A stretch of DNA of 64,000 nucleotides from Mizuhopecten yessoensis (lineage: Eukaryota): NCBI RefSeq assembly GCF_002113885.1, contig NW_018408062.1, forward strand, positions 336,073-400,072, in the 5' to 3' direction. This document shows positions 125 to 63,256 of the stretch, piece after piece; the first letter of the stretch is position 1, and each line of letters begins with the position of its first letter. The notes under the pieces are model-generated. The model searched no databases and had not been told where the DNA came from. It saw only the letters and a program-made list of their open reading frames with translations. Made by a program: the position numbers and the translations under genes.

Positions 125-3100
125 TTATACATGTGTGCGCGTGCGAATTTATGTATGCGTACATGTATGAGTATGCGTACATGTGAGTATTCGTACATGT
201 GTGAGTAAACGTACATGTGTGAGTATTCGTACATGTGTGAGTATGCGTACATTTGTGTGTATGCGTACATGTGTGTGTATTCGTACATGTGTGAGTAAAC
301 GTACATGTGTGTGTATTCGTACATGTGTGAGTATCCGTACATGTGTGAGTAAACGTACATGTGTGAGTAAACGTACATGTGTGTGTATTCGTACATGTGA
401 GAGTATCCGTACATGTGTGAGTAAACGTACATGTGTGAGTATGCGTACATGTGTGTGTTTTGTGCGTACATGTGTGAGTATTCGTACATGTGTGAGTATG
501 CGTACATTTGTGTGTATGCGTACATGTGTGTGTATTCGTCCATGTGTGAGTAAACGTACATGTGTGTGTATTCGTACATGTGTGTGTATTCGTACATGTG
601 TGAGTATGCGTACATGTGTGTGTATTCGTACAAGTGTGAGTAAACGTACATGTGTGAGTATGCGTACATGAGTGAGTGTGCGTACATGTGTGAGTATTCG
701 TACATGTGTGAGTAAACGTTTATGTGTGAGTATTCGTACATGTGTGAGTATTCGTACATGTGTGAGTGAACGTGCGTACAAGTGTGAGTAAACGTACGTG
801 TGTGTGTATTCGTACAAACTGGAGAAAACGTACTTGTGTGGGTATGCGTACATGAGTGAGTATGCGTACATGTGTGTGTCTGCGTACATGTGTGTATTCG
901 TACATGTGGTAGTAAACGTACATTTGTGTGTATTCGTACATGTGTGAGTAAACGCACATGTGTGTGTATTCGTAGTATGCGTACATGAGTGAGTGTGAGT
1001 ACATGTGTGTGTATTCGTTCATGTGTGAGTATGCGTACGTGTGTATGTATGCGTACATGTTTGTATTCGTACATGTGTGAGTATTCGTACATGTGTGAGT
1101 ATGCGTACATGTGTATGTATGCGTACATGTGTGTATTCGTACATGTGTGAGTAAACGTACATGTGTGTGTATTCGTACATGTGTGAGTATGCGTACATGC
1201 GTGAGTAAACGTACATGTGTGAGTATGCGTACATGAGTGAGTGTGCGTACATGTGTGAGTATTCGTACATGTGTGAGTAAACGTATATGTGTGAGTATTC
1301 GTACAAGTGTGATTAAACATACATGTGTGAGTATTCGTACATGTGTGAGTATTCGTACATGTGTGAGTAAACGTACATGTGTGAGTATGCGTACATGTGT
1401 GAGTATTCGTACATGTGTGAGTAAACGTACATGTGTGTGTATTCGTACATGTGTGAGTATGCGAATATGTGTGAGTATTCGTACATGTGTGAGTAAACGT
1501 ATATGTGTGAGTATTCGTACAAGTGTGAGTAAACATACATGTGTGAGTATTCGTACATGTGTGAGTATTCGTACATGTGTAAGTATGCGTACATGTGTGA
1601 GTATGCGTACATGTATGTGAGTATTCGTACATGTGTGAGTAAACGTACATGTGTGAGTATTCGTACATGTGTGAGAATGCGTACATGTGTGAGTAGTCGT
1701 ACATGTGTGAGTATGCGTACATGTGTGTGTATTTGTACATGTGTGAGCATTCGTACATGTGTGAGTATGCGTACATTTGTGTGTATGCGTACATGTGTGT
1801 GTATTCGTACATGTGTGAGCATTCGTACATGTGTGAGTACGCGTACATGTGTGAGTATGCGTACATGTGTGTGTATTCGTATTCGTACATGTGTGAGTAA
1901 ACGTATATGTGTGAGTATTCGTACATGTGTGAGTAAACGTACATATGTGAGTATTCGTACATGTGTGAGTATGCGTACACGTGTGAGTATGCGTACATGT
2001 GTGAGTATTCGGACATGTGTGAGTATTCGTACATGTGTGAGTAAACGTACATGTGTGTGTATTCGTACATGTGTGAGTATGCGTACATGTGTGAGTATGC
2101 GAATATGTGTGAGTAAACGTACATGTGTGAGTATGCGTACATGTGTGAGTTTTCGTACATGTGTTAGTGTGCGTACATGTGTGTGTATTCGTAAAAGTGT
2201 GAGTAAACGTATATGTGTGAGTATTCGTTCATGTGTGAGTTTTCGTACATGTGTTAGTGTGCGTACATGTGTGTGTATTCGTACATGCGTGAGTAAACGT
2301 ACATGTGTGTGTATTCGTACATGTGTGAGTATGCGTACATGTGTGTGTATTCGTACAAGTGTGAGTAAACGTATATGTGTGAGTATTCGTACATGTGTGA
2401 GTTTTCGTACATGTGTGAGTAAACGTACATGAGTGTGTATTCGTACATGTGTGAGTATTCGTACATGTTTGAGTATGCGTACATGTGTGAGTATTCGTAA
2501 ATGTGTGAGTATGCGTACATGTGTGAGTATGCGTACATGTGTGAGTATTCGTACATGTGTGAGTATGCGTACATGTGTGTGTATTCGTACATGTGTGAGT
2601 ATGCGTACATGTGGGAGTATTCGTACATGTGTGTGTATTCGTACATGTGTGAGTAACCTTACATGTGTGTGTATTCGTACATGTGTGAGTATGCGTACAT
2701 GTGTGAGTATTCGTACATGTGTGTGTATTCTTACATGTGTGAGTATGCGTACATGTGTGGGTATTCGTACATGTGTGAGTATGCGTACATGTGTGAGTAT
2801 TCGTACATGTGTGAGTAAACGTACATGTGTGTGTATTCGTACATGTGTGTGTATTCTTACATGTGTGAGTATGCGTACATGTGTGAGTATTCGTACATGT
2901 GTGAGTAAACGTACATGAGTGAATAAACGTACATGTGTGAGTAAACATACATGTGTGAGTATGCGTACATGTGTGAGTAAGCGTACATGTGTGAGTAAAC
3001 GTACATGAGTGAATAAACGTACATGAGTGAATAAACGTACATGTGTGAGTAAACGTACATGAGTGAATAAACGTACATGTGTGAGTAAACGTACATGTGT

Positions 3101-3196
3101 GAGTAAACGTTCATGAGTGAATAAACGCACATGAGTGAATAAACGTACATGTGTGAGTAAACGTACATGTGTGAGTATGCGTACATGTGTGTGTTT
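125..3196. repeat. 18-bp tandem satellite, consensus GTACATGTGTGAGTA(TTC/TGC/AAC), ~170 copies
   Basis: Continuous 18-nt periodicity with three dominant unit variants. The 6-aa periodic ORFs (HMYEYS, THVRIL, RTCVSI) are translations of the unit. Confidence 0.98.
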
Positions 3197-3299: not shown

Positions 3300-3750
3300 G
3301 GAAGGAAAAGGAGTACGCACCATAGCACTGGATATTACGAACTTTTGTAAAGTTAATAGTTTGGAATAGTGGATGATTATAACAAGTACATTTGTATAGG
3401 TTGTGTCGGGATGGACTGTTCACACGATCCCATGATCCACTGAATGTATCTGGGCGGAAGTACAGTGCTATAATATAATTATCATGGTAGTTCTTTTTTA
3501 CACACCGTCTAACTCTCTTAATGATTTTTCTCGTAAATTAGAGTGGTCTCTTGAATCTGTTTGTGATCGTAGTTCTGAAATAGTTCTTCTTTGTGTTTTT
3601 AATGTTGGCCTCAAACGTCCTTATTCAAATTTTGAGATTTTAATTCTTAATTATGATCTTTGTGTTATTATTTTTGAGCCTACTTGTGATACCCGAACCC
3701 CAGCCACGCTACTGGACCATGTTTTCATTTCTGATAACATAACCTGTTTC
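3300..3750 (+). pseudogene. Degraded older LINE remnant: AP-endonuclease fragment, preceded by a possible SGNH-esterase ORF1 C-terminal remnant
   Basis: 3484..3750 translates to VVLFYTPSN...IVLLCVFNV...IFEPTCDTRTPATLLDHVFIS, a decayed form of the LINE EN motifs YRPP, GDFN and EPTR..S.TLLDHVF. 3330..3460 gives, across frameshifts, FCKVNSLE.VDDYNK...RDGLFTR..IH.NVSGRK, resembling the SGNH block V motif DxxHLNxxG. Confidence 0.6.
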
Positions 3751-4172
3751 GATAGTGATAAAAGATGGCGACGGACCTGGAGGAATGCCGATAGGTACGT
3801 TCGAGAACTTTGGTGTTTCATCGAGTTCAGAGAATTTATTTATTTCTGAGATTTCGCAAGCTGATAAATTAGCCATCCCGCCATGTATCCATGCTGTTTA
3901 TTTTACACCAAATGCTTTATTTATTGCCAATATTCGATGTGCCTATACTGAAGCTATTGTTTACAATATGAACTTTGAACTTTTCTATCGACATTATCAC
4001 TATTTACCTGAGCTGGACAATGCACTATGCGCGGTATTTCGTCACGCTCCACCGAGCCGAAAGCAGTTTACGCACGGGGGTGAAACCGTACTGTTGTGAA
4101 TTTGTTCCCGTGTGTGTTTCGATCGTTAATTTATAAAAGAATAAAACTGTACTCTCTGATTGATTTGCCGGT

Positions 4173-5327
4173 ATGGGTAAAAAATCCAGGAAACGTAAGA
4201 AGGTAGCTGAGAATGAAAGCACTGACACTTCCGACGTCAGTATTCAATCCTCGGGTTTTCTAAGTTCGATCCTCCATGCAGCGAATGGTGTGCTTTACAG
4301 CAGCCCAACAAAGTCAGTCAACGCAAAACCTCCATCGGCCTCTACTCCGACAGCACCAAAACCTCCGGTTAACAATGATGCTGCTGAAATAAAGACAAAA
4401 TTAGATTTTATCCTAAAAAAGCTGGAGATGTTGGATAGTATAGAGAGTAAGTTGAACAATCTTTCTTCTAAGGTCGCGGGGATAGAGAAAAGAGTTGTTG
4501 ACGTAGAAAAGAAAACTGAGGAATTTGAACAGTCGGTACATTTTGTGGCCAATAAGCTTGATGAGATTGAAAAATCCAGCGTAGGAGGACAACAGGTGTG
4601 TAGCAAGATAGAGAAACAGGAACGAATGATTGCTGATCTGAGTGATAAGGTGGAAAAGGTAGTTGAAGAACGGGGCTCCCTTCGTGACACTGTGTTAGAT
4701 TTACAATGCAGATCTATGAAAAATAACTTGGTTTTCACTGGCCTTGCTGGAGAATCTAGGAGTGAGGATACCGAGTCTCTCATCAGAGATTTCATTTTCC
4801 ATGAGCTCCGTATTGAACAGAGGATCGAGTTCGGCAACGTTCATAGGTTTGGTCGTCATGTTCATGGTAAAAATAGGCCTATAGTTGCAAGATTCTTGTA
4901 CCAACAAGATCTTCAGTTGGTGAAAAATAGTTCCTATCGTCTGAGGGGTTCTGGCTTTGGAGTCTATGAGCAATTTCCGGCCGCTATAGAGGACCGTCGT
5001 AAGAGGCTCTACCCTGTCATGAAGCACCACAAACAGCTCGGTGACCATACCAAGATGGTCAGGGATAAGTTGTTCATTAACGGCCAGTTGTACACGGGAT
5101 CCGATGACATGTCGTTCACAGAGCCTAAAAGAACACTTAGTGCACCACACAGAGAATTGAACCCACACAGTGAACATCAGCGACCGCACAACAACGATGA
5201 AACATTCCGCGGTCCACCAAGAAACATCCATCGTGTACCTCCTGGACCAAGTCAGCCCTGGAGAGCACATTCTGTTCCCCAACGATCCAACCCTACGAAT
5301 GGTAATTCCCAGATGTATGGGAGATAG
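4173..5327 (+). CDS. LINE ORF1 protein (coiled coil + RRM/CTD, L1 ORF1p/Transposase_22-like), 384 aa
   Basis: ATG start; basic N-terminus MGKKSRKRKK; heptad-rich coiled coil; DLQCRSMKNNLVFTGL, NVHRFG, RPIVARF, EQFP, RDKLFING motifs typical of this ORF1 type; Pro/Gln-rich tail. Confidence 0.9.
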   Translation: MGKKSRKRKKVAENESTDTSDVSIQSSGFLSSILHAANGVLYSSPTKSVNAKPPSASTPTAPKPPVNNDAAEIKTKLDFILKKLEMLDSIESKLNNLSSKVAGIEKRVVDVEKKTEEFEQSVHFVANKLDEIEKSSVGGQQVCSKIEKQERMIADLSDKVEKVVEERGSLRDTVLDLQCRSMKNNLVFTGLAGESRSEDTESLIRDFIFHELRIEQRIEFGNVHRFGRHVHGKNRPIVARFLYQQDLQLVKNSSYRLRGSGFGVYEQFPAAIEDRRKRLYPVMKHHKQLGDHTKMVRDKLFINGQLYTGSDDMSFTEPKRTLSAPHRELNPHSEHQRPHNNDETFRGPPRNIHRVPPGPSQPWRAHSVPQRSNPTNGNSQMYGR

Positions 5328-8300
5328 GACAGACAGGAGAGTGGTATCTCAGTGTGTTCCTGGAATGTGTGCAGGGGTCTAATAGGTAAACTTGAGGATC
5401 CGGAATTCCGGAATTTGTTAGTATCGTATGATATTGTATGCGTATCGGAATGTTGGATAAAAGAATTTGATGTTTTACAGCTTTCGGGTTACAGTCATTT
5501 TGCATTCCCAAGATCAGTATGTAGAGGAGGTGGTATAGTAATTTTTTACAAACCAGAACTGGCCGATCAAATTGAAGTGGTTGAAAATATCTACGACAGT
5601 ATTGTCTGGCTTAAGATTAATAATACAGGTACCTGTAACTCCGGAGAACACACATTTATTGCATTTTGTTATATCCCTCCTGAGGGAAGTGTTTTTTATG
5701 ATCACTGTAATGAAGATTTATTCCAAATTTTAGAAGATTCCGTTGGTAGATATAAAAGCATGGGTGATGTATATGTTATCGGTGATATGAATGCACGCAC
5801 TGGAAGCAGGCATGATTATATAGAATTAGATACATTACATGATAGTTTAGTACATAATTTAGAAAATGTGGTTAATTATAATGTTGAAACTGTCAGCACT
5901 GAGCGTAAGAATATGGATAAGGGGGTAAACACTTTTGGCCGTAAGCTTATTGACTTGTGCAAGTCATCAGGTCTGCGTATAGTTAATGGGCGGCACCCAG
6001 ATGACGATACTGGTACATATACATTTTTTAATAATAATGGTAAAAGTACGATTGATTACTTGTTGGTTGTAAATGCGACAATAGACAATATACTTAAGTT
6101 TGATTCTGGTAAATTTAACATGTTTTCTGATCACTGTCCAGTTGCGTTTCATATATGTATTGGCAAATTTTTAGATACTCAAATTGTAAATGAGTTGGCT
6201 GATTACAATGCCATGTACAGTAGAGGAACCTGTACGTCTGTGAAATGGAAAGGCGAGAATACTATGCTAATTTTAGATAAATTAAGTGAGAACTGTGAGT
6301 TAATTGATGAACAATTGAATGTTGATTTAAATAACCAAGATGCAGTTGATGAATGTGTGAATAATATAAGTAGAATATTAAATGATTGTACATTACCTTT
6401 TTGTGAGTGTAGAGATACCCCTCTGAGAAACTCCCGCGATCACCGCACTAAAACTGTTGTTATTGAAGATAAACCGTGGATAACTCCTCGGTGCAAAGAT
6501 CTATATACTGAATACAGAAATTCGTTGATTAATTTTAACCGGGATAAATCAAATCAAAATTACAATATATTAATAACCGCCAAACGTAATTACAAAAGGT
6601 TGGTGTTTAAACTTAAAAGAGATTATAAACGATATGAAGGCGACATGCTGGTCCTTTTGAAAAGAAATGATCCAAGAAAATTTTATAGTATCTTTAATAA
6701 TCGGAAGTCGAACAGAGCTATGAATACACTCACAATAGATGACTTCTATAGACACTTTAAATATCTGGCGCAAAAGGAGAATGATGGCGCTGACCAACAT
6801 GTTCCTAATGTTAATATAGAGTCAGTTTATGAAGATCTTGATTCTAATATCACAACAAAAGAAATTGTTAAAGCCATTGAAAACCTGAAATCAAACAAAA
6901 GTTGTAGTGAAGACTTAATCATAAACGAAATTTTTATTCAAGGAAAGCATATTCTGGTGCCATATTTGGAACGGTTGTTTAATGCTATTTTTAGATCTGG
7001 GTTTTTCCCTGAATCTTGGTCACAAGCATGTATTGTTCCTGTTTTTAAGAAAGGCTGTATTAACGACACTAATAATTATCGTGGTATATCACTTGTAAGC
7101 TGTTTTGGTAAATTATTTACATCAATCTTGAATAATAGAATTATGACATGGGAAAAAGAAAATTGTATAATAACAGATGCTCAGTTTGGTTTTAGAAAAG
7201 GCAGTTCAACCATTGACGCCATATTTGTTTTACAAACATTAATTAACAAGAAATTGCGTAAAAAAGAGAGACTTTACTGTTGCTTTATAGATTTAAAAAA
7301 AGCATTTGATTTTGTTAATAGAGGAAAACTGTGGAGTAAATTAATACACCAAGGTATTCGTGGAAAATTTTTAAAAATATTATTATCTTTGTATGATAAT
7401 GTCAAATCCTGTGTAAAATTTGAGGGTCAATTAAGTCATTGTTTCCCTAATTATACCGGTCTCTTACAAGGGGAAATATTGTCACCTGTGTTGTTTTCTT
7501 TGTATGTGAATGATTTTGAAATTAATTTTATTAATGATAATTGTCCAAGTATTGATTTACAGATGCTTAACCTTTTCCTGCTAATGTATGCTGATGATAT
7601 GGTTTTTTTCGCTGATAGTCCAGCTGCATTGCAAAACATGTTAGATTCTTTACACAGTTACTCTAGAAAATGGGATCTGGAAGTCAACATTGATAAAACA
7701 AAAGTCATGGTTTTTAGAAACGGGGGAAACATAAGAAATAATGAAGTGTGGAAATATAATAATGAGAACATAGAAATTGTTGACTGTTTCAAATATTTGG
7801 GAATGTTTTTTAATTATAATGGTAAATTTTATAAAACCCAAAAGCATTTAGCGGACCAAGGAAGAAAGGCTTTATTTTCATTATCATCCTCTTTAAAGAA
7901 CCATTGTTTGAATTTGGAAACCCAATGCTCTGTCTTTGATATTTATGTCAGCAGCATCTTAAGCTATGGTGCAGAAATATGGGGGTTTCACAAAGCTCCT
8001 GATATAGAGAGAGTTCATTTGAATTTCTGCAAAAAAGTCCTTAGAGTATGTAAATCTACATTCAATGATTTAGTTTATTGTGAATTGGGTAGACTACCAT
8101 TAATTGTTACAAGAAAGCTAAAAGTATTCAAATATTGGTTGAAGTTGACGAAATCTGATAATTTGATATTAAAAACTTGTTATGATGAATGTGTCAACGT
8201 GAATGATCCGTGGATTTGTAACATTAAGAATGAATTAACTGCCCTAGGTCTTGGTTATATTTTTGAATCGAATCTACCATTGGTAAACACTTTTGAAATT

Positions 8301-8744
8301 ATTGAACACAGATTGAAAGATGTTACTAAGCAAAATATGTTGGCAAAGATAGCAGCTTCATCAAAAGGTAGACTATATCAATATCTTATAGACAGTCATA
8401 GTATTCAGTTTTATCTCCGTAAACATATTGAAACAAAATACAAATATATGTTAACTAAATTTAGAACGTCGTCTCATCAACTGAATATCGAAAAGGGTAG
8501 ACACAATAATATCATTCGCAGAAATAGAAACTGTAGCAAATGTGATTTGGGAGACGTCGAGGACGAATTTCATTTCATTTTTGTATGTCCTTTTTATAAT
8601 GATTTGAGGTTAAAGTATATAAAGAAGTATTATTATAAGAGTCCCTCTGTTTACAAACTTGTCCAACTTTTATCTGTAAATAATGTCAAAGAGTTGTCAA
8701 ATCTAGGTAAATATTTATATCTAGCCACTAAGCGGCGAAATTGA
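5328..8744 (+). CDS. LINE ORF2 polyprotein: AP endonuclease + reverse transcriptase + C-terminal CCHC zinc finger
   Basis: EN motifs SWNV, VSECW, GGGIVIF, GDMNAR, STIDY, SDHCP. RT motifs NYRGISL, QFGFR, FIDLKKAFD, QGEILSP, MYADD, FKYLG. C-terminal CSKC..EDEFHFIFVC. The frame is open from 5328 (the ORF track starts at GTG 5352); no internal stops. Confidence 0.97.
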   Translation, partial: DRQESGISVCSWNVCRGLIGKLEDPEFRNLLVSYDIVCVSECWIKEFDVLQLSGYSHFAFPRSVCRGGGIVIFYKPELADQIEVVENIYDSIVWLKINNTGTCNSGEHTFIAFCYIPPEGSVFYDHCNEDLFQILEDSVGRYKSMGDVYVIGDMNARTGSRHDYIELDTLHDSLVHNLENVVNYNVETVSTERKNMDKGVNTFGRKLIDLCKSSGLRIVNGRHPDDDTGTYTFFNNNGKSTIDYLLVVNATIDNILKFDSGKFNMFSDHCPVAFHICIGKFLDTQIVNELADYNAMYSRGTCTSVKWKGENTMLILDKLSENCELIDEQLNVDLNNQDAVDECVNNISRILNDCTLPFCECRDTPLRNSRDHRTKTVVIEDKPWITPRCKDLYTEYRNSLINFNRDKSNQNYNILITAKRNYKRLVFKLKRDYKRYEGDMLVLLKRNDPRKFYSIFNNRKSNRAMNTLTIDDFYRHFKYLAQKENDGADQHVPNVNIESVYEDLDSNITTKEIVKAIENLKSNKSCSEDLIINEIFIQGKHILVPYLERLFNAIFRSGFFPESWSQACIVPVFKKGCINDTNNYRGISLVSCFGKLFTSILNNRIMTWEKENCIITDAQFGFRKGSSTIDAIFVLQTLINKKLRKKERLYCCFIDLKKAFDFVNRGKLWSKLIHQGIRGKFLKILLSLYDNVKSCVKFEGQLSHCFPNYTGLLQGEILSPVLFSLYVNDFEINFINDNCPSIDLQMLNLFLLMYADDMVFFADSPAALQNMLDSLHSYSRKWDLEVNIDKTKVMVFRNGGNIRNNEVWKYNNENIEIVDCFKYLGMFFNYNGKFYKTQKHLADQGRKALFSLSSSLKNHCLNLETQCSVFDIYVSSILSYGAEIWGFHKAPDIERVHLNFCKKVLRVCKSTFNDLVYCELGRLPLIVTRKLKVFKYWLKLTKSDNLILKTCYDECVNVNDPWICNIKNELTALGLGYIFESNLPLVNTFEIIEHRLKDVTKQNMLAKIAASSKGRLYQYLIDSHSIQFYLRKHIETKYKYMLTKFRTSSHQLNIEKGRHNNIIRRNRNCSKCDLGDVEDEFHFIFVCPFYNDLRLKYIKKYYYKSPSVYKLVQLLSVNNVKELSNLGKYLYLATKRRN

Positions 8745-9784
8745 TTAATTAGCTACACGTATTTATAATTTTTGTGCTTTTGTATTATGTTCTTTGTTTA
8801 GTTTGCACTTGTATGCTTATAGTCACTCTCCTATAACATATATACATGTACAATGTATCATGATTGCTTTGTACCTATAAGTCTTAAGACTTTTGGTGAA
8901 TAAAGAACTTGAACTTGAACTTGGTGTGTTTGAGTAAGATGCCGCGATTAGCGATCATAAAGCTACTTACATTTCTATGAAATACTCGTACAATCGCAAG
9001 TGTGCCAAAAGAGGCCTGTATAGAATTATGGAAATACAGATTTTGTTACTCCTTATAACCTTCTTTACGATATTAATTGGCAAACAACTCTCTAGCTGAG
9101 ACACAGAGCTGCACAAATACAGACAAACGTACATTGCTGTTGTCTAATCGTGCAGGGAAATGGTCACCTTGTCATATTTCCTATCCTACCTCGGACTGCT
9201 ATCACGTGGGTGGCAAACCATTGTATTGTGGAACATGGGATTGAAGAACTACGCCTTACTTAGAAGGTGGGGAAGTTTTATTGTGAAGAGAATCATCTGA
9301 CTGGGTCTCTTAACTTCTGTTATTGTTTCGAATTTTCTGGGCCACCCACTTGTTTGAGTGTTGTCTGGTCTCCTCTGTTGTCTCTTAAGAAGCTCTTTAC
9401 GTAGCAAACGTTCCTTTCAAATCTAGAAGAACAAATCTATTTTTTCTACCTTTTTATAAGATTCATAACATATAAGTTCCAGGTCATCTTTATTATTTGC
9501 TTCCCTTTAAAGAAAATATCCTCATCACTGTCTTCGTAAACCAGTTAACTATCAAATGGCAAGATGTATATTAGATGTGTTCAATAGTCATTTATCCACT
9601 CTCCAATAAGCTTATGGAAAGGACTTGGGAATTATGTACAAATTATTTTATACACATTTGCTTAAGAAAGTATTATCTATGCCAGGCGTTTTACTAGCAT
9701 ATTTAAATGCCGGAAACCGACCGATATATTTCAGTCCTTTTAGCAAGAACATAACTGTAGTGATCTTAAAGGTGACATTTTTCG

Positions 9785-10481
9785 CGTTGGTATTTGTCAC
9801 TGTGGTGATGGTAATTAAGATACGTATCTTAAAATGTACGAATAGTAGAATGAGTAAATATCCTTGTGACCGTTGGAATTTGTCACTGTGGTGATGGTAA
9901 TTAAGATACGTATCTTAAAATGTACGAATAGTAGAATGAGTAAATATCCTTGTGACCGTTGGTATTTGTCACTGTGGTGATGGGAAGTAAGATACGGATC
10001 TTAAAATGTACGAATAGTAGAATGAGTAAATATCCTTGTGACCGTTGGTATTTGTCACTGTGGTGATGGGAATTAAGATACGTATCTTCAAATGTACGAA
10101 TAGTAGGATGAGTAAATACCCTTGTGACCGTTGGTATTTGTCACTGTGGTGCTGGTAATTAAGATACGTATCTTCAAATGTACGAATAGTAGGATGAGTA
10201 AATACCCTTGTGACCGTTGGTATTTGTCACTGTGGTGATGGGAATTAAGATACGTATCTTCAAATGTACGAATAGGAGAATGATTAAATACCCTTGTGAC
10301 CGTTGGTATTTGTCACTGTGGTGCTGGTAATTAAGATACGTATCTTCAAATGTACGAATAGTAGAATGATTAAATACCCTTGTGACCGTTGGTATTTGTC
10401 ACTGTGGTGATGGTAAGTAAGATACGTATCTTAAAATGTACGAATAGTAGAATGAGTAAATATCCTTGTGACCGTTGGTAT
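9785..10481. repeat. 86-bp tandem repeat, ~8 copies
   Basis: Unit GGTATTTGTCACTGTGGTGATGGTAATTAAGATACGTATCTTAAAATGTACGAATAGTAGAATGAGTAAATATCCTTGTGACCGTT; its TTGG junction recurs at 9787, 9873, 9959 and onward. Confidence 0.97.
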
Positions 10482-10954: not shown

Positions 10955-12120
10955 GTATGATGCATCTACTTAACTTAATACTTGAACAAGTGGCATGTCT
11001 ACTGAGCTTATTGCATTGTTACTAGGTGCATGTCTACTTAATTTAATATATTGTAACTAGTGGCATGTCTACTTAATTTAACACAGTGTAACTTGTGGCA
11101 TGTCTACTTAATTTAATATATTGTAACTAGTGGCATGTCTATTTAATTTAACACATTGTAACTAGTGGCATGTCTATTTAATTAAACACATTGTAACTTG
11201 TGGCATGTCTACTTAATTTAACACAGTGTAACTTGTGGCATGTCTTCTTAATTTAACACATTGTAAATAGTGGCATGTCTATTTTATTAAGTAGACATGC
11301 CCCAAGTTACAAAATATTATATTAGGTAGACATGCCACAAGTTAAAATGTGTTAAATTAAATCGACATGCCACTAGTTCCAATTTATTAAATTAAGTAGA
11401 CACGCCACAAGTTACACTGTTTTAAATTAAGTAGACATGCCACACATTGTAACTTGTGGCATTTCTACTTAATTTAACACATTGTAACTAGTGGCATGTC
11501 TATTTAATTTAACACAGTGTAACCTGTGGCATGTCTACTTGATTTAATATAATGTAACTAGTGGCATGTCTACTTAATTTAACACAGTGTAACTTGTGGC
11601 ATGTCTACTTAATTTAATATATTGTAACTAGTGGCATGTCTATTTTATTTAACACATTGTAAGTAGTGGCATGTCTATTTAATTTAACACATTGTAAGTA
11701 GTGGCATGTCTTTTTAATTTAACACATTGTAAGTAGTGGCATGTCTACTTAATTTAATACATTGTAACTAGTGGCATGGCTATTTAATTTAACACATTGT
11801 AAGTAGTGGCATGTCTATTTAATTTAACACATTGTAAGTAGTGGCATGTCTACTTAATTTGATACATTGTAACTAGTGGCATGTCTACTTAGCGTAAAAC
11901 ATTGTAACTAGTTGCATGTCTGATTAACCTAATGCATTGTTAATAGTGACATGTCTTCTTCACTTAATACTTTGTAACTAGTGGCATGTCTACTTAGCTT
12001 AATACTTCGTAACTAGTGTCATGTTTACTTAGCTTAATACATTGTAACTAGTTACAGGTCTATTTAACTTAATGCATTGTAACTAGTGACATGTCTACTA
12101 AAGTTAATGCATTGTAACTA
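10955..12120. repeat. 35-bp tandem repeat (~33 copies) with an internal inverted block at 11287..11443
   Basis: Unit ACTAGTGGCATGTCTACTTAATTTAACACATTGTA (TGGCA at 11061, 11096, 11131). The central ~4.5 units read as the reverse complement (TAAGTAGACATGCCAC). Confidence 0.95.
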
Positions 12121-18826: not shown

Positions 18827-19055
18827 GTAAAGCCTAACGATTTCAAACTCTTAGAATTACACAACAATTTTCCGTGTGAATGTATTCTATTTTAATATTT
18901 GTCTCTTTTTGTTTCAAATAATTGATAAACATATTAAGTAATCATTCATCATAATGAAAGAAAATTTTATGTTTCGACGTCAAGACGTTGATAGACAAAA
19001 TTGTATCTAACTGTAAGAAATATGTAAGGTTTAAAATACTTACTCATTTCTACAG

Positions 19056-19547
19056 GAGGCCAAATCCGGTCGACTTGTGAATTAACAGTCTACGTGGAGT
19101 ACAGTAATGACAATTACCTCGTCCATCCTCTGGATATCGCTGGGAACAAGTACACTGTCGCAGTTCCTGCTGACTTCACGTCTTGGGAGTGTTTCATCGC
19201 CATATTCCCAGTACGTAACGCAACCAACGTCACCGTCATGGCGGAAGCGCCGACAACTGATTACGTCCTGATCGACGACAGTAGCTGGACCAAATACGAC
19301 TCCAAGTACAAGATGATGGTTACCCTCTACGAATTTGAAACAATTTATATCAAGTGTGCTTGTAGTTTGTCTGGTGTAGAAATCATATCACCAAATGCCT
19401 TCTTGGTTGTTGCTGGCGCCATACCAATACATCCTAGCCCTCGAGCAATTCTTATTGAACAACTTTCGTCGGAAACTACATGGGGTCGACAGTTCTTGTT
19501 TCCAATGCCAACTCTTGTTAACATCACAGCGACATTGTATATATTTG
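19056..19547 (+). CDS. Coding exon 4, IgGFc-binding protein N-terminal (IgGFc_binding-type) domain
   Basis: CTACAG acceptor, G|GTATGT donor, 492 nt, phase 1-1. Motifs DNYLVHPLDIAGNKY, FIAIFP..NATNVTV, LYEFETIYI, LSGVEIIS, LIEQLSSETTWGRQF. Confidence 0.9.
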
Positions 19548-19966
19548 GTATGTATCTGCTAATTCACATTTTTGTTTCTTTATAAATGTAATATCGTTTA
19601 ATTTTTTTGTGTGTATTTACTTATTTATAAAATTGTTTTATCGCTTCGAATTTACCATCTCTTTTAACTAAAGCATCTTGATCGAACATATTTATGTATC
19701 AAATATGTATTGATTTTGTCATAAATTGAAGTAAATACAATGTAACATAACTTCTATAAATATCAATTTTTATGTTTATTTTTCTCATAACTATGTATAT
19801 CTGAGTTTAATGATGATATGTTAATTACGGATTATACAACATGGATGCTCTGTGTGTACTGATAAATCATTTCCGGCTATGATTTAACTGGCAATATTAT
19901 GTTCGATACAATACATAATCTGTCATGTAGATGAATTATAAATACACATTTTGTTGTTTGTTACAG

Positions 19967-20817
19967 GTAAAAACAATACAGCTGGTCTGTTTGTTAATAC
20001 TGATCGTGTTAACCCTAGTTTTGTGTCTATATCATCATTCCCCCACATCCTGGAGATCGAAGCAGATGAATACATCCACGTTATATCACCCAACTCGTCC
20101 GTCTTACCCATGGTGCTGATGGAAACTTTGAATAATGACAGAGACGTCAGATTCATGTACATGACCCTACCACCAGTGTCACAGTGTCTTCCGAGACATC
20201 GATTCAACGACGACAGAGGAAACCGAAGTATGGCGATGTCTCTTTGGGGTACATTCGGATACAACTACCTGATTAATTCGCAGAACCTTACAAAGACAGC
20301 ACAAGTCACGAATTTTACTCATGACAACATATACCTTTATACAAATTTTGAAAGTTATCTTAGTTTTGAGATAATACCGAAACGACATACAACATTATTT
20401 CCGTCTGTCTGTGGTATTGTTGAAATTGCACGTAGAAAACAATATCATCTTTATTCACTTGGAATGCGGCAAACGAATGTATTCGATTCATGCGTCATTT
20501 CCGGCAAACTGACATTTACAGCAGCAGATGGAAATGATAACGACTGCGATGGTTTGGTGGACGAGGAACTCAGAAATAAGCGTGACGATGATGGAGATGG
20601 TTTAATCGACGAAGATGTTGGCTCGTGGACGAACGTTAGACGACAGGTTGATGGCGAGGAGGCATTGGTGATGGAGGGGGCCTTAGTTGCCGTCATCATT
20701 TCTATCGTAGTGGCGTTGTTTGCCGTAATAGCCTTTATAGGAGGGATGGTTGTGGCCGACCAGCTGCTGGGCGGAAACAGTGTAGCACCCGTTCTGGATA
20801 GTCCAGATTTACAGTAA
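19967..20817 (+). CDS. Terminal coding exon 5: rest of the IgGFc-binding-type region, DGNDNDCDGLVDEE/DDDGDGLIDED acidic motifs, transmembrane helix, short cytoplasmic tail
   Basis: TTACAG acceptor, phase 1, open to TAA at 20815-20817. MTLPPVSQ motif; ALVAVIISIVVALFAVIAFIGGMVV hydrophobic stretch. Spliced CDS totals 1656 nt = 551 aa + stop. Confidence 0.92.
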
Positions 20818-45899: not shown

Positions 45900-47144
45900 A
45901 CAACAACTTCAGGGACGGTAGACAACTTCAGGGGGACTGGTAGACAACGTCAGGGACTAGTAGACAACTTCAGGGACTAGAAGACAACTTCAGGGACTGG
46001 TAGACAACTTCAGGGACTAGTAGACAACTTCAGGGACTGGTAGACAACCTCAGGGACTGGTAGACAACGTCAGGGACTAGTAGACAACTTCAGGGACTAG
46101 AAGACAACTTCAGGGACTAGTAGACAACATCAGGGACTAGTAGACAACTTCAGGGACTAGTAGACAACGTCAGGGACTAGTAGACAACTTCAGGGACTGG
46201 AAAACAACGTCAGGGACTAGTAGACAACTTCAGGGACTGGTAGACAACTTCAGGGACTAGAAGACAACTTCAGGAACTGGTAGACAACTTCAGGGACTGG
46301 TAGACAACTTCAGGGACTAGTAGACAACGTCAGGGACTAGTAGACAACTTCAAGGACTTGAAGACAACGTCAGGGACTAGTAGACAACTTCAGGGACTGG
46401 TAGACAACGTCAGGGACTGGTAGACAACGTCAGGGACTCGTAGACAACTTCAGGGACTAGTAGACAACTTCAGGGACTAGTAGACAACTTCGGGGACTGG
46501 AAGACAACGTCAGGGCCTAGTAGACAACTTCAGGGACTGGAAGACAACTTCAGGGACTAGTAGACAACTTCAGGGACTGGTAGACAACTTCAGGGACTAG
46601 AAGACAACTTCAGGAACTTGTAGACAACTTCAGGGACTGGTAGACAACTTCAAGGACTGGTAGACAACTTCAGGGACTGGTAGACAACTTCAGGGACTGG
46701 GAGACAACTTCAGGGACTAGTAGACAACGTCAGGGACTAGTAGACAACTTCAAGGACTGGAAGACAACGTCAGGGACTAGTAGACAATTTCAGGGACTGG
46801 TAGACAACGTCAGGGACTGGTAGACAGCGTCAGGGACTAGTAACAACTTCAGGGACTGGTAGACAACTTCAGGGACTAGAAGACAACTTCAGGAACTGGT
46901 AGACAACTTCAGGGACTGGTAGACAATTTCAGGGACTAGTAGGCAACTTCAGGGACTGGTAGACAACTTCAGGGACTGGTAGACAATTTCAGGGACTGGT
47001 AGACAACTTCAGGGACTGGTAGACAATTTGTGGGACTGGTTGACAACTTTAGGGACTGGTAGACAACTTCAGGGACTGGTAGACAATTTCAGAGACTGGT
47101 AGACAACTTCAGGGACTGGTAGACAACTTCAGGGACTGGTAGAC
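45900..47144. repeat. 20-bp tandem satellite (TAGACAACTTCAGGGACTGG/AG), ~62 copies
   Basis: Exact 20-nt periodicity, visible as column alignment in the listing. Confidence 0.99.
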
Positions 47145-56426: not shown

Positions 56427-57717
56427 TGTCAGTAATTAAGGAGACAGATTCAAATAAGTATTTTAATATTTTTTTCTGAATCCTGTACTTATGTATTGTA
56501 TGTATGACATGAAAATATGGTACAAACGTACACCTCGATTTCACACTTAATATGTTTATACAAAATATACAATGTAACAGAACGTCCATTTGTGAGTTTA
56601 AGTATAACAGGTTATAACCAAAAAAACAAGATATATCTAGTTTAATGTGTCTACAAAAGACAAAAGAGTTCCTGAAATTGTATGACTTATTACCTTTGTC
56701 ACATCAGGAGACACTGCACTAATCATTTCACATATAATGTCAGAATAAGAAACACAAGCAATTGTTTTGTTAAATGTTCAAAGTAAATTTCAATTCTTTG
56801 ATTTGTCAGCTTATTGTAAAAAGAAAATACAAAGAGGTTTTTTTCCATACATGTAGCAAGAAAAACTACTTAAAAATTAAATTTTCGTTCAAATCATTCC
56901 TGCAACACCTGTGACCTGGCTTTGTTTTTAAAACGAGGTAACCATTTGCCATGATTTTTTCTTAACTATATTACCAAAGCCACACTCTTGCTCAGAGTCC
57001 GTTTAACAATGGCATATGCCTCAAGTTCTTACACGCTGAATATATTCAATTCCACCTGGCAAAATGCCAGTCTTCTTTTAAATTGATATATCCCAAAATC
57101 GACAAACCAGAAAAATGTATAGATTCTTATTTAGTTTCACTGGAATTCAATAAACTGGTAAGATTTAAAGCAAAAAAAAACTACTATGCGTAGGCCCGAA
57201 AAGCAAATTGGATTAGATAAACTTCTATTACAATATTTTCTGCGAAATAACGACTGTATGAATATTCGCCGGAGGAGATGGGAAGGTCTGGTCTGCAGTT
57301 CGATATGTGTTTGCTTTAAAGCTAAATTTGCCTGCGGTAAACGCGTAAAGATGTTACGGTATAGAACACAATCGTATTAGTCGTCTTAATGTTGTATGGT
57401 TGTGAGGTTAAAGACTGAGTAAAACAAATAAAACCGATTCCTTCCGCTGTAGTGTTGTATTGGGATATTTTAACAGCGTGTCATCTTAAGATCGTGACTT
57501 GAATAAAACATCATTAGATAATCAAATCAACTTGATGCACAATCTGGAAATTGCCAAGATGATTTTTTTTCAGCAAGAGTGACAAAACGATTTTTTTCAA
57601 AAAAACACCAAAGATAACATAAAACTAATTTTAATCAATTTACTTTGAAATGAATGATCCAGAACATTTAAAATGTTAGATTTATTGTCAGTATGTGAAG
57701 AACATAATTATTATTTC

Positions 57718-60700
57718 TGTAAACTATTATAGCTTCAGTAAAATATTATAGCTTCAGTAAACTACATTTATTATAGCTTCAGACAACTATTATAACTTCA
57801 GACAACTATTATAGCTTCAGTAAAATTTTATAGCTTCAGTAAACTATTATAGCTTCAGTAAACTATTAAAGCTTCAATAAACTATTATAGCTTCAGTAAA
57901 CTATTATAGTTTCAATAAACTTTTATAGCTTCAGTAAACTATTATTCCTTCAGTAAACAATTATAGCTTCAGTAAACTATGTAGCTTCAGTAAACTGTTA
58001 TAGCTTGAGTAAACTATTATAGCTTCAGTAAACTATTAGAGCTTCAGTAAACTATTTTAGCTTCAATAAACTAATATAGCTTCAGTAAACTATTAAAGCT
58101 TCAATAAACTATTATGGCTTCAGTAAACTATTATAGTTTCAATAAACTTTTATAGCTTCAGTAAACTATTATAGCTTCAGTAAAATGTTATAGCTTCAGT
58201 AAACTACATTATGTATTATACCTTCAGTAAACTATTTTAGCTTCAATAAACTATTATCGCTTCAGTAAACTATTAAAGATTCAGTAAACAATTATAGCTT
58301 CAGTAAACTATTATAGCTTCAGTAAAATGTTATAGCTTCTGTAAACTATTATAGCTTCAGTAAAATGTTATAGCTTCAGTAAACTACATTATGTATTATA
58401 CCTTCAGTAAACTATTTTAGGTTCAATAAACTATTATAGCTTCAGTAAACTATTAAAGCTTCAGTAAACAATTATAGCTTCAGTAAACTATTATAGATTC
58501 AGTAAACTGTTATAGCATCAGTAAACTATTATAGCTTCAGTAAACTGTTATAGCTTCAGTAAACTATTATAGCTTCAATAAACTATTATAGCTTCAGTAT
58601 AATGTTATAGGTTCAGTAAACTATGTAGCTTCAGTAAACTGTTATAGCTTCAGTAAACTATTATAGCTTCAGTAAACTGTTATAGCTTGAGTAAACTATT
58701 ATAGTTTCAGTAAACTATTATAGCTTCAGTATAATGTTATAGGTTCAGTAAACTATGTAGCTTCAGTAAACTGTTATAGCTTCAGTAAACTATTATAGCT
58801 TCAGTAAACTGTTATAGCTTCAGTAAACTATTATAGTTTCAGTAAACTATTATAGCTTCAGTATAATGTTATAGGTTCAGTAAACTATGTAGCTTCAGTA
58901 AACTGTTATAGCTTCAGTAAACTATTATAGCTTCAGTAAACTATTATAGTTTCAGTAAACTGTCATAGCTTCAGTATAATGTTATAGCTTCAGTAAACTA
59001 TGTAGCTTCAGTAAACTGTTATATCTTCAGTAAACTTTTATAGCTTCAGTAAACTATTATATCTTCAATAAAATTGTATAGTTTCAATAAACTTTTATAG
59101 CTTCAGTAAACTATTATACCTCCAGTAAACTATTATAGCTTCAGTAAACTATTATAGCTTCAATAAACTTTTATAGCTTCAGTAAACTATTATAGCTTCA
59201 GTAAACTATTATAGTTTCAATAAACTATTATAGCTTCAGTAAACTATTATAGCTTCAGTAAACTATTATAGCTTCAGTAAACAAGTATAGCTTCAGTAAA
59301 CTAATATAGCTTCAATAAACTGTTATAGTTTCAATAAACTTTTATAGCTTCAGTAAACTATTATAGCTTCAGTAAACTATTATAGCTTCAATAAAATTTT
59401 ATAGCTTCAGTAAACTATTATAGCTTCAGTAAACTGTTATATCTTCAGTAAACTATTATTGTTTCAATAAACTATTAAAGCTTCAGTAAACTATTATAGC
59501 TTCAATAAAATTGTATAGCTTCAGTAAACTATTATAGCTTCAGTAAACTATTATAGCTTCATTAAACTATTATAGCTTCAGTAAACTATTATAGCTTCAT
59601 TAAACTTTTATAGCTTCAGTAAACAATTATACCTTCAGTAAATTATTATAGCTTCAGTAAACTATGTAGCTTCAGTAAACTGTTATATCTTCAGTAAACT
59701 ATTTTAGCTTCAGTAAACTACTTTAGCTTCAGTTAACAAGTATAGCTTCAGTAAACTAATATAGCTTCAATAATCTGTTATAGATTCAGTAAACTATTTT
59801 AGCTTCAGTAAACTGTTATAGCTTCAGTAAACTATTATAGCTTCAGAAAACTATTATAGCTTCAGTAAACTATTATAGCTTCAGTAAACTACATTTATTA
59901 TAGCTTCAGACAACTATTATAGCTTCAGTAAACTATTGTAGCTTCAGTAAACTTAGAGCTTCAGTAAACTATTAGAGCTTCAGTAAACAGTTATAGCTTC
60001 AGTAAACTATTATAGCTTCAGTAAACTAATTTAGCTTCAGTAAACTATTATAGCTTCAGTAAACTATTATAGCTTCGGTAAACTAGTATAGCTTCAGTAA
60101 AATGTTATAGCTTCTGTAAACTATTATAGCTTCAGTAAAATGTTATAGCTTCAGTAAACTATTATAGCTTCAGTAAACTATTTTAGCTTCAGTAAATTTT
60201 TATAGCTTCAGTAAACTATTATACCTTCAGTAAACTATTATAGCTTCAGTAAACTATTATAGCTTCAATAAACTTTTATAGCTGCAGTAAACTAGTATAG
60301 CTTCGGTAAATTAGTATAGCTTTAGTAAACTATGTAGCTTCAGTAAACTGTTATATCTTCAGTAAACTATTTTAGCTTCAGTAAACTATTATTGTTTCAA
60401 TAAACTTTTATAGCTTCAGTAAACTATTATAGCTTCAGTGAACTATTATAGTTTCAATAAACTATTATAGCTTCAGTAAACTATTATAGTTTCAATAAAC
60501 TTTTATAGCTTCAGTAAACTATTATACCTTCAGTAAACAATTATAGCTTCAGTAAACTATGTAGCTTCAGTAAACTGTTATAGCTTCAGTAAACTTTTTT
60601 AGCTTCAGTAAACTGGTATAGCTTCAGTAAAATGTTATAGCTTCAGTAAACTATTATAGCTTCAGTAAAATGTTATAGCTTCAGTAAACTATTAGAGCCT

Positions 60701-63256
60701 CAGTAAACTATTATAGCTTCGGTAAACAAGTATAGCTTCAGTAAAATGTTATAGCTTCAGTAAACTATTATAGCTTCAGTAAAAAATTTTAGCTTCAGTA
60801 AACTGGTATAGCTTCAGTAAAATGTTATAGCTTCAGTAAACTATTAGAGCCTCAGTAACCTATTATAGCTTCGGTAAACAAGTATAGCTTCAGTAAAATG
60901 TTATAGCTTCAGTAAACTATTAGAGCCTCAGCAAACTATTATAACTTCGGTAAACTAGTATAGCTTCAGTAAAATGTTATAGCTTCAGTAAACTATTAGA
61001 GCCTCAGTAACCTATTATAGCTTCGGTAAACAAGTATAGCTTCAGTAAAATGTTATAGCTTCAGTAAACTATTAGAGCCTCAGCAAACTATTATAACTTC
61101 GGTAAACTAGTATAGCTTCAGTAAAATGTTATAGCTTCAGTAAACTATTAGAGCCTCAGTAAACTATTATAGCTTCGGTAAACAAGTATAGCTTCAGTAA
61201 AATGTTATAGCTTCAGTAAACTATTAGAGCCTCAGCAAACTATTATAACTTCGGTAAACTAGTATAGCTTCAGTAAAATGTTATAGCTTCAGTAAACTAT
61301 TATAGCTTCTGTAAAATTTTATAGCTTCAGTAAACTATTATAGCTTCAGTAAACTATTATAGCTTCAGTAAACTATTATTGCTTCAGTAAACTATCATAG
61401 CTTCAGTAAACTATTAGAGCCTCAGTAAACTATTATAACTTCGGTAAACTAGTATAGCTTCAGTAAAATGTTATAGCTTCAGTAAACTATTATAGCTTCA
61501 GTAAACTGGTATAGCTTCAGTAAAATTTTATAGCTTCGGTAAAATATTATAGCTTCGGTAAACTATTATAGATTCAGTAAACTATTATAGCATCAGTAAA
61601 CTATTATAGCTTCAGTAAACTGTTATAGCGTCAGTAAACTATTATAGCTTCAGTAAACTGTTATATCTTCAGTAAACTATTATAGCTTCAATAAACTTTT
61701 ATAGCTGCAGTAAACTATTATAGCTTCAGTAAACTATTATAGCTTCAGTATAATGTTATAGCTTCAGTAAACTGTGTAGCGTCAGTCAACTGTTATATCT
61801 TCAGTAAACTATTTTAGCTTCAGTAAACTATTATAGTTTCAATAAACCTTTATAGCTTCAGTAAACTATTATAGCTTCAGTAAACTACTATAGCTTCAGT
61901 ATAATTTTATAGCTTCAGTAAACTATGTAGCTTCAGTAAACTGTTATATCTTCAGTAACCTATTTTAGCTTCAGTAAACCATTATAGCTTCAGTAAACTG
62001 TTATAGCTTCACTAAACTATTATAGCTTCCGTAAACTGTTATAGCTTCGGTAAACTATTACAGCTTCAGTAAACTGTTTAGCGTCAGTCAACTTTTATAT
62101 CTTCAGTAAACTAATTTAGCTTCAGTAAACTATTATTGCTTCAGTAAACTATTATAGCTTCAGTATAATGTTATAGCTTCAGTAAACTGTGTAGCGTCAG
62201 TCAACTTTTATAGCTTCAGTAAACTATTTTAGCTTCAGTAAACTATTATAGCTTCAGTAAACTATTATAGCTTCGGTAAACTATTATAGCTTCAGTAAAC
62301 TGTTATATCTTCAGTAAACTATTATAGCTTCAATAAACTTTTATAGCTGCAGTAAACTATTAGAGCTTCAGTAAACTATTATAGCTTCAGTAAACTGCTA
62401 TAGCTTCAGTAAACTGTTATAGCTTCAGTAAACTATTATAGCTTCAGTATAATGTTATAGCTTCAGTAAACTGTGTAGCGTCAGTCAACTGTTATATCTT
62501 CAGTAAACTATTTTAGCTTCAATAAACCTTTATAGCTGCAGTAAACTATTATAGCTTCAGTATAATGTTATAGCTTCAGTAAACTGTGTAGCGTCAGTCA
62601 ACTGTTATATCTTCAGTAAACTATTATAGCTTCAGTAAACTATTAGAGCTTCAGTAAACTATTTTAGCTTCAATAAACGGTTATAGCTTCAGTAAACTGT
62701 TATAGCTTCAGTAAACTATTAGAGCTTCAGTAAACTATTAGAGCTTCAGTAAACTATTATAGCTTCAATAAACTTTTATAGCTGCATTAAACTATTATAG
62801 CTTCAGTAAACTATTATAGCTTCAGTAAACTGTTATAGCTTCAGTAAACTGTTATAGCTTCAGTAAACTATTATAGCTTCAGTAAACTATTAGAGCTTCA
62901 GTAAACTATTTTAGCTTCAATAAACTTTTATAGCTGCAGTAAACTATTATAGCTTCAGTAAACTATTAGAGCTTCAGTAAACTATTAGAGCTTCAGTAAA
63001 CTATTTTAGCTTCAATAAACCTTTATAGCTGCAGTAAACTATTATAGCTTCAGTAAACTATTATAGCTTCCGTAAACTGTTATAGCTTCAGTAAACTGTT
63101 ATAGCTTCAGTAAACTATTATAGCTTCAGTAAACTATTATAGCTTCAGTAAACTATTATAGCTTCAGTAAAAAAAAATAGCTTTAGTAAACTATTATAGC
63201 TTCAGTAAACTATTACAGATGATGGAAACTTTTATAGCTTCAGTAAACTATTATAG
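57718..63256. repeat. 19-bp tandem satellite (AAACTATTATAGCTTCAGT), ~290 copies, 5.5 kb, with local higher-order structure
   Basis: 19-nt periodicity throughout; variant units recur in ordered blocks. Confidence 0.99.

Follow-up and report, generated by a model that had tools for sequence, protein, structure and literature searches.

The window analysed here is a stretch of 64,000 nucleotides (nt) of the Mizuhopecten yessoensis genome (assembly GCF_002113885.1, contig NW_018408062.1, positions 336,073 to 400,072 of the forward strand; all positions below are those of the window). It contains one copy of a full-length non-LTR (long terminal repeat) retrotransposon, probably of the RTE-X clade, located at 3758-8923 on the + strand, whose ORF1 and ORF2 (ORF, open reading frame) are both intact and form a single frame divided by an amber codon. 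We assign a probability of roughly 0.85 to this codon being a programmed readthrough site that yields an ORF1p-ORF2p fusion, a reading suggested by sequence conservation among relatives. For copies of the element, contigs over 3700-6100 were examined in four runs, each from a different study (4 of 19 listed runs). A contig of run X11 fuses position 3757 to the flank beginning at 8924 and represents the empty site, runs X9 and X13 contain copies with other flanks at 3758-3761, and eight 5'-truncation points are found among the copies. The element is young and polymorphic, and its insertion left a target duplication of at most 2 nt. LTRs are absent, whereas a simple-repeat 3' tail, 5'-truncated copies, and an ORF2 that combines an apurinic/apyrimidinic endonuclease (APE) with a reverse transcriptase (RT) and is devoid of internal stops are all present, as in autonomous APE-type long interspersed nuclear elements (LINEs). 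The assignment to RTE-X was made by eye, from RTs labelled RTE-X in Table S7 of PMC10294476 that resemble those of the window, of the relative L001 and of the clade Y described below, the tree itself containing no reference sequences. The bivalve RTE-X (RTEX) LINEs of that paper are, like the window element, about 5 kb long with APE plus RT.

ORF1 (4173-5327, + strand) encodes 384 residues, which AlphaFold predicts to fold into a coiled coil, an RNA recognition motif (RRM) and a C-terminal domain (CTD), followed by a low-confidence tail of ~70 residues that extends up to the TAG (predicted local distance difference test score 77 for the model, below 50 for the tail). Foldseek analysis of this model reports human L1 ORF1p among its top matches (E 2e-8), and the modelled fold is like that of L1 ORF1p, while PDB sequence searches brought up no match with the endonuclease and, with ORF1, coiled-coil noise alone. 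The esterase reported as ORF1 of some RTEX elements (PMC3905857) is not what this ORF1 encodes, its predicted product being an L1-like coiled coil-RRM-CTD protein. The amber codon occupies 5325-5327 (+ strand). As reported in an earlier note made from these letters alone, ORF1 ends AGA TAG and the same frame runs on, open from 5328 to 8744 (+ strand, 1138 residues); the resulting fusion, predicted there at ~1520 residues, would comprise 1523. Pfam analysis identifies Exo_endo_phos (PF03372) from ORF2-frame residue 10, which corresponds to profile position 1, with the endonuclease Asn at codon 13 (5364) and Glu at codon 41 (5448), and RVT_1 (PF00078, residues 574-826, E 2.5e-35) in the YADD-containing RT domain (7047-7805, + strand). 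A C-terminal CCHC-like motif, Cys-x2-Cys followed by His-x4-Cys (8532-8588, + strand), is seen in the translation and falls in conserved alignment columns. The first in-frame ATG is indeed at 5760, although it is codon 145, 144 codons past the stop, and not ~136 codons downstream as first counted. Initiation there would, as anticipated, break the endonuclease, its product lacking the first half of that domain with the SWN and SECW motifs. Upstream of SWN, near-cognate codons are limited to ATC at codon 7 and GTG at codon 9, each within the first endonuclease strand. The contigs of the four runs show no alternative letter at 5325-5327, and single contigs span the TAG in three of the runs.

Relatives were gathered in two sets. 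A metagenome scan provided 15 loci, 12 of which show an ORF1 end together with related downstream sequence; all 12 have TAG as this stop, continued in phase by ORF2 or an open frame, with later damage in some. A genome scan provided host LINE contigs in two symbiont bins, G001 and G002, including 100 further contigs from the top of the 150 matches listed among 209. In an RT tree of 118 sequences, clade X, to which the window element belongs, has 36 rows and clade Y has 18; the SH-aLRT (Shimodaira-Hasegawa-like approximate likelihood ratio test) support is 98 for X, 100 for Y and just 33 for their union. TAG is the ORF1 stop in 64 of the 66 visible RTE-X junctions (49 in clade X and 15 in clade Y), namely the window, 12 junctions from four metagenome data sets and 51 from G001/G002. 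This count leaves out L008, L023, L052, L070, L071 and L072, whose junction is off the contig or which are 5'-truncated, as well as L014 (TAG) and L015 (TAA), which have no downstream ORF2 match. Directly before the TAG, a same-frame ORF of at least 150 codons is present in 50 of 51 aligned junctions, the lone exception, L002, having a frameshift 26 codons upstream. A Met upstream of the endonuclease Asn is missing in 44 of these 51, and in nine of them the Asn is the seventh codon past the stop. The two observations that could have undone the earlier proposal, a TAG specific to this copy with a sense codon in the family or an ATG between TAG and SWN as the family rule, are thus both contradicted by the runs and the relatives. 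In L021, 441 open codons separate the TAG from the first ATG, and in L005, L021, L024 and L034 AT-rich in-frame stretches of 185-540 codons between TAG and endonuclease stay open. The ORF2s of the relatives are 25-43% identical to that of the window, and their ORF1 tails show no relation in sequence or length. By comparison, 49 control LINEs with an upstream ORF, from the same bins, end ORF1 with TAA (27), TAG (17) or TGA (5), have ORF1 in frame with ORF2 in four cases and an adjacent in-frame TAG in two. The ORF1-TAG-ORF2 arrangement in one frame is conserved across two RT clades. Since the ORF2s of the RTE-X elements end in TAA (20), TGA (8) or TAG (4), a non-standard genetic code is ruled out, TAG terminating ORF2 in 4 of 32 elements. 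The absence of in-frame stops in 1285 codons where 121 are expected is partly circular and was not used as a test. In-frame TAGs immediately preceding ORF2 occur in two members of the control clades too, L079 and L087, but there an ATG comes 5-9 codons on.

The nucleotides around the stop are constrained as well. In clade X the consensus is A-TAG-G-R (A-TAG-G at 5324-5328 in the window, + strand) followed by a purine run at +13 to +17: A occupies position -1 in 32 of 49 junctions, G position +4 in 42 and +13 in 37, and each of +14 to +17 is a purine in 45-47. An in-frame UAG with a 3' G or purine-rich bases defines the type III class of readthrough signals (PMC3542737). When codon 4 is four-fold degenerate it ends in a purine in 27 of 27 cases against a background of 52%, and when it encodes Glu it is GAG in 13 cases and GAA in one, while nearby Glu codons are GAA 195 times and GAG 54 times. 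This synonymous bias, in counts that take kin as independent, indicates that the constraint acts on the RNA.

Only two of the 66 junctions depart from TAG. In the relative L068 (also L152; contig C632 of G001) a single frame, 1487 codons long, begins at the ORF1 Met and reaches the end of ORF2. The sister element L066 (also L155), with an ORF1 70% identical, aligns to it without gaps at the junction, the TAG standing opposite TTC of L068. The 3' end of L068 is a tandem repeat of its ORF2 end and no partner helix of the kind described below was found in it. This sequence shows that a fused ORF1-ORF2 frame can stay intact; the autonomy of L068 is not implied. The other exception, L054 (contig C216 of G002), is an RTE-X-like outlier with its own ATG, an out-of-frame ORF1 ending in TGA and an unstable placement in the tree. 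Taken together, the clade-wide in-frame TAG, the A-UAG-G context and the naturally fused relative strongly support the readthrough option of the earlier note.

Long-range pairing appears to link the junction to the other end of the element. In the window, AGGAGAGUGGU (5335-5345, + strand; +11 to +21 from the T of TAG and including the purine run) is predicted to form 11 bp with GUCACUCUCCU (8822-8832, + strand) in the 3' untranslated region (UTR), ~3.5 kb away, with the distal core (8823-8830) predicted to lie in a hairpin loop. This is the top helix of the whole element (-13.8 kcal/mol, the next being -9.5). An initial search for the best partner of +8 to +23 in 42 elements places these partners in a cluster near the ORF2 stop. 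Swapping partners among the 33 elements with both ends available shows that +7 to +28 pairs better with its own 3' end (-15.6 kcal/mol) than with those of others (-13.2 kcal/mol; 0 of 100,000 permutations; z -5.2). The complementarity of +7 to +28 with the 3' end is element-specific. Among 28 distal bins, the own-partner excess peaks at -70 to +130 from the ORF2 stop (-2.59 +/- 0.54), and at the proximal side, over the 15 offsets completed, it is limited to 22-mers with a start at -11 to +6 relative to the TAG end (overlap +4 to +25). Four control windows inside ORF2 give p 0.47-0.98, whereas the region +130 to +730, the sole one not used in choosing, gives p 0.037 (n=13). Cofolds of the 33 elements with the bases covered by a terminating ribosome removed give 0.65 versus 0.47 (p 0.002). 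The distal position varies from element to element (ORF2 end or 3' UTR). The two arms lie within coding sequence in six elements of clade Y, among which only 3 of 88 four-fold columns have an invariant third base, and 2 of the 3 are in the distal arm. In L058 both arms are changed and the helix is kept with 12 pairs. An apparent compensatory pair (L028 versus L031) is discounted, as 3' UTR sequences do not align among L026, L027, L028 and L031. The pairing of stop-proximal bases with an element kilobases away at the 3' end, a tombusvirus feature, is thus found computationally, and on these predictions we lean, with some reserve, towards readthrough stimulated by a tombusvirus-like long-range helix.

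Several observations weigh against this picture. When one element per family is kept, the median z falls from -4.8 through -3.9 and -3.2 to -2.4 at 60, 50, 45 and 40% identity (n 27, 20, 15 and 10). Two MAG (metagenome-assembled genome) bins, probably with a common host, supply 51 junctions out of 64 and, in the pairing test, 30 elements out of 33; kin are not independent, and the distal window was set after the first partner search had been seen. The own partner ranks in the top three for just 13 of the 33 elements, several have no pairing, and the window's own partner ranks 7th of 33 in the main swap test (2nd in another test). The whole naked-RNA fold of the window leaves out the long-range helix, with the distal core in a loop, and the cofold probability is 0.99 with a proximal strand starting at +9 or +11 but 0.05 from +13. 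A second natural fusion was sought among the homologues and none was found; long ORF1 homologues resemble spliced gene models, not clean fusions. Furthermore, readthrough in a reporter does not necessarily follow from an in-frame stop and a plausible structure, as the Candida element Tca2 shows (PMC2194720). Searches for a hold-out set for the pairing test returned only known contigs (L142-L158, not recounted) and no new full-length RTE-X element. The read-contig check covered 3700-6100, upstream of the distal element. In the naked cofold the distal element (about 8825-8838) pairs instead with 5313-5324, upstream of the stop, a modelled alternative that is possibly a switch.

Readthrough may also be real with a local stem or pseudoknot, or the linear context alone, as its stimulator, the long-range pairing serving another step, for instance reverse transcription, or being partly due to chance. 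This explanation shares the readthrough core and so competes solely on the stimulator. The naked-RNA fold of the window does contain a local hairpin at 5326-5361, and many elements are without a distal partner. Nevertheless, the local fold 3' of the stop has a mean z of -0.04 (70 nt, n=49), and no excess of local folding appears in 12 windows of 70 nt from 0 to +350 (49 and 15 junctions), so that the large stem-loop that tombusviruses have 3' of the stop is not seen either. The complementarities that the earlier note had put forward as a stem or pseudoknot, GAGATA with TATCTC and CAGGA with TCCTG, are present where it placed them, the first making use of the stop's T and A. They are at chance level and not conserved: the two stems are found together at these offsets in 1 of 49 junctions, a set that includes the window, versus 0-2 of 47-49 at seven shifted anchors. 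The suggestion of a local stimulator consequently finds no conserved fold behind it, and by the same stem counts the compact pseudoknot that follows an 8-nt spacer in gammaretroviruses is missing. As regards the 3' RNA structure of type III signals, a local one is absent, and a long-range helix is statistically supported, though not in every element. With the long-range signal being specific at both ends, a purely local or linear stimulator seems rather unlikely, while still deserving weight.

The other option of the earlier note was termination at the TAG followed by an AUG-less restart at or next to it, of the L1 type or by a post-termination 80S ribosome, which would give a separate ORF2p, the purine run and the helix holding the ribosome. 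Precedents exist: in human L1, any sense codon is reported to substitute for the AUG of ORF2 (PMC1965478), caliciviral restart accepts non-cognate codons and SART1 requires downstream structure (PMC5972666); the rarity of clean natural fusions also fits. Restart is nonetheless rated improbable, because known restarts depend on neither the kind of stop nor the frame, whereas both are fixed here. The first six codons contain no AUG or near-cognate codon in 31 of the 64 junctions, including the window. The window and most aligned junctions lack the AUG that L1, SART1 and caliciviruses have at or close behind the ORF1 stop, or overlapping it. A 2A-like DxExNPGP motif occurs near the ORF2 start in none of the 64, and the fused relative retains an intact frame. 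In the window, the one sequence inspected for it, the UGGGA nearest to the stop is at 5318-5322, 3-7 nt upstream, outside the 40-90 nt expected of a termination upstream ribosome-binding site (TURBS).

Three further explanations have, even combined, a quite small probability. In the first, TAG/G is a splice acceptor, ORF2 is translated from a spliced RNA with an upstream AUG, and the purine run is a splicing enhancer. The YAG/G match is present in 53 of the 64 junctions, and the Mytilus gene models P0002, P0003 and P0005 join ORF1 and ORF2. This is very improbable, as the pyrimidine content upstream equals the background (0.47 versus 0.47), AG is not depleted there, CAG never occurs, and splicing would leave the ORF1 frame unfixed; the contigs of the four runs contain no splice-like joints over 3700-6100, although contigs lose rare forms and only one of the runs is on record as RNA. 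Alternatively, UAG could be edited to UIG (Trp) by ADAR (adenosine deaminase acting on RNA), for which UAG is the preferred triplet and the hepatitis delta amber site an example. Editing would account for the use of TAG only, and the distal element can pair beside the stop in the naked cofold; if the element has the cis preference of L1, edited RNA would be copied into TGG copies, yet none exists in the four runs or the 66 junctions, and we hold editing for extremely improbable. Finally, a nonsense mutation in a dead copy of a single-ORF element, for which the single-ORF relative L068 could be invoked, is refuted by the fixation of the TAG in four studies of a polymorphic element with fresh truncated copies and by its conservation in relatives of 25-43% ORF2 identity.

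If we assume that the UAG is read through, most ribosomes would stop there and release free ORF1p, while the A-UAG-G context would weaken termination and a near-cognate tRNA would decode the codon at low frequency. The ribosome would unwind the local hairpin, allowing the purine run ahead of it, positioned at its leading edge, to pair with the 3'-end element ~3.5 kb away and thereby stimulate readthrough. ORF2p synthesis would then be restricted to RNAs whose 3' end, which target-primed reverse transcription requires, is intact, and a readthrough ribosome, by analogy with tombusviruses, would undo the helix and free that end for reverse transcription. Speculatively, the fusion's ORF1p portion could anchor the polymerase in the particle formed by ORF1p. 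The broadest version of this proposal is an even bet. It holds that clade-wide fusion by amber readthrough, triggered when the RNA base-pairs with its own 3' end at a distance of 3.5 kb, is a 3'-intact checkpoint explaining cis preference, and that the sister clade Proto2 relies on -1 frameshifting or an AUG, which would make three routes in one superfamily. If true, LINEs would have arrived at a retrovirus-like fused polymerase, the 3'-end stimulator would be a direct mechanism for LINE cis preference, and stop recoding controlled by the 3' end would exist in an animal nuclear element. The proposal bears on the open question of how LINE ORF2 is translated, how the ORF1p:ORF2p ratio is set and how LINEs act in cis; it would also mean that annotations of these abundant bivalve elements have a wrong ORF2 start or invented introns.

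Among known systems, the architecture appears closest to that of tombusviruses and the purpose closest to that of gammaretroviruses. Tombusvirus readthrough depends on pairing over ~3.5 kb with the RNA 3' end (PMC3234231), between a proximal and a distal readthrough element (PRTE and DRTE). The UAG-GGR-like context, the pairing of stop-proximal bases and the gains proposed, 3'-end quality control and cis preference, are alike. In contrast, RTE-X elements are devoid of a conserved large proximal stem-loop, their proximal bases begin ~8 nt past the stop, the distal position varies and the helix is a predicted one. Gammaretroviral gag-UAG-pol has the same in-frame UAG, +4 G and purine-rich 3' bases, and makes its polymerase as a fusion with the structural protein in excess (PMC3542737); the window element differs by its non-LTR nature, by the lack of a compact pseudoknot 8 nt past the stop and in that no fusion-cleaving protease is seen. 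The bicistronic LINE RNA and the L1-like ORF1p fold are shared with human L1 and silkworm SART1. In these, ORF1 and ORF2 are either set apart by a 63-nt spacer and an AUG or overlap as UAAUG, and reinitiation gives ORF2p as a protein of its own (PMC5972666, PMC10275272), whereas the window has no spacer and the clade mostly no AUG. Tca2, an LTR element, likewise has its structural and polymerase genes separated by an in-frame stop, in this case UGA, and its flanks alone gave no readthrough in yeast (PMC2194720), a failure that, speculatively, could stem from a missing distal element. Zorro3 uses an AUG for ORF2 (PMC1965478), and HeT-A frameshifts inside gag (PMC5009743). In the full-text literature searched, no report of RTE-X readthrough or of a LINE long-range readthrough element was found, Repbase Reports and most subscription papers, which may mention the TAG, lying outside it; the main text of PMC10294476 does not contain the word "readthrough" and has "ORF1" once. 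Within these bounds, readthrough is apparently undescribed for this element class.

Another LINE subclade of G001 and G002 (L099, L102-L104, L107, L109, L112, L114, L117, L118, L121, L123, L126-L128, L130, L131, L133, L134, L137, L140 and L141) possesses TTTTTT in ORF2 phase 0 in 22 of 22 cases examined, 90-141 nt before the endonuclease Asn and, where ORF1 is on the contig, within the overlapping +1-frame ORF1. Its U_UUU_UUR heptamer is a candidate programmed -1 frameshift site, and its look-alikes, matched by eye, are labelled Proto2. The two bins themselves, whose records are titled Sedimenticola sp. MAG, contain 164 and 45 RT matches on short contigs, which are animal LINEs. These bacterial bins are heavily contaminated by host DNA, and NCBI names one of the LINE ORFs a Sedimenticola reverse transcriptase. 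The predicted protein P0169 (2485 residues) combines an RT with a pair of ORF1-like domains and has a 2A-like ELNPGP close to the N-terminus; it is probably a chimeric gene model.

Searches with the window element in other collections were of little yield. Rfam returned no match, ORF1 profile scans of genome contigs and viral contigs no relatives, plasmid and phage searches nothing relevant to the element, and viral scans with ORF2 alignments three loci, all unrelated. The named ORF1 relatives are from molluscs, with bivalves in the majority. As to the remaining parts of the element, the 5' UTR (3758-4172, + strand), its 5' end deduced from loose contig ends, contains AAGATGGCG at 3762-3770, which we take to be a YY1-like motif, and an upstream ORF of 9 codons (3765-3794, + strand). 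The 3' end (8899-8923, + strand) consists of AATAAA and a (GAACTT)3 tail, delimited by the empty-site junction. The insertion site (3436-3757) resembles a decayed endonuclease fragment of another LINE, presumably so from its motif, with no Pfam match. Elsewhere in the window, two pieces of host genes lie at 19028-19585 (+ strand; IgGFc_binding, PF17517, E 3e-11) and 19942-20817 (+ strand; no Pfam match). Minisatellite arrays account for 33 rows, with periods of 18, 86, 35, 20 and 19 and positions that include 153-3191, 9785-10481, 10965-12120, 45903-47144 and 57715-63256.

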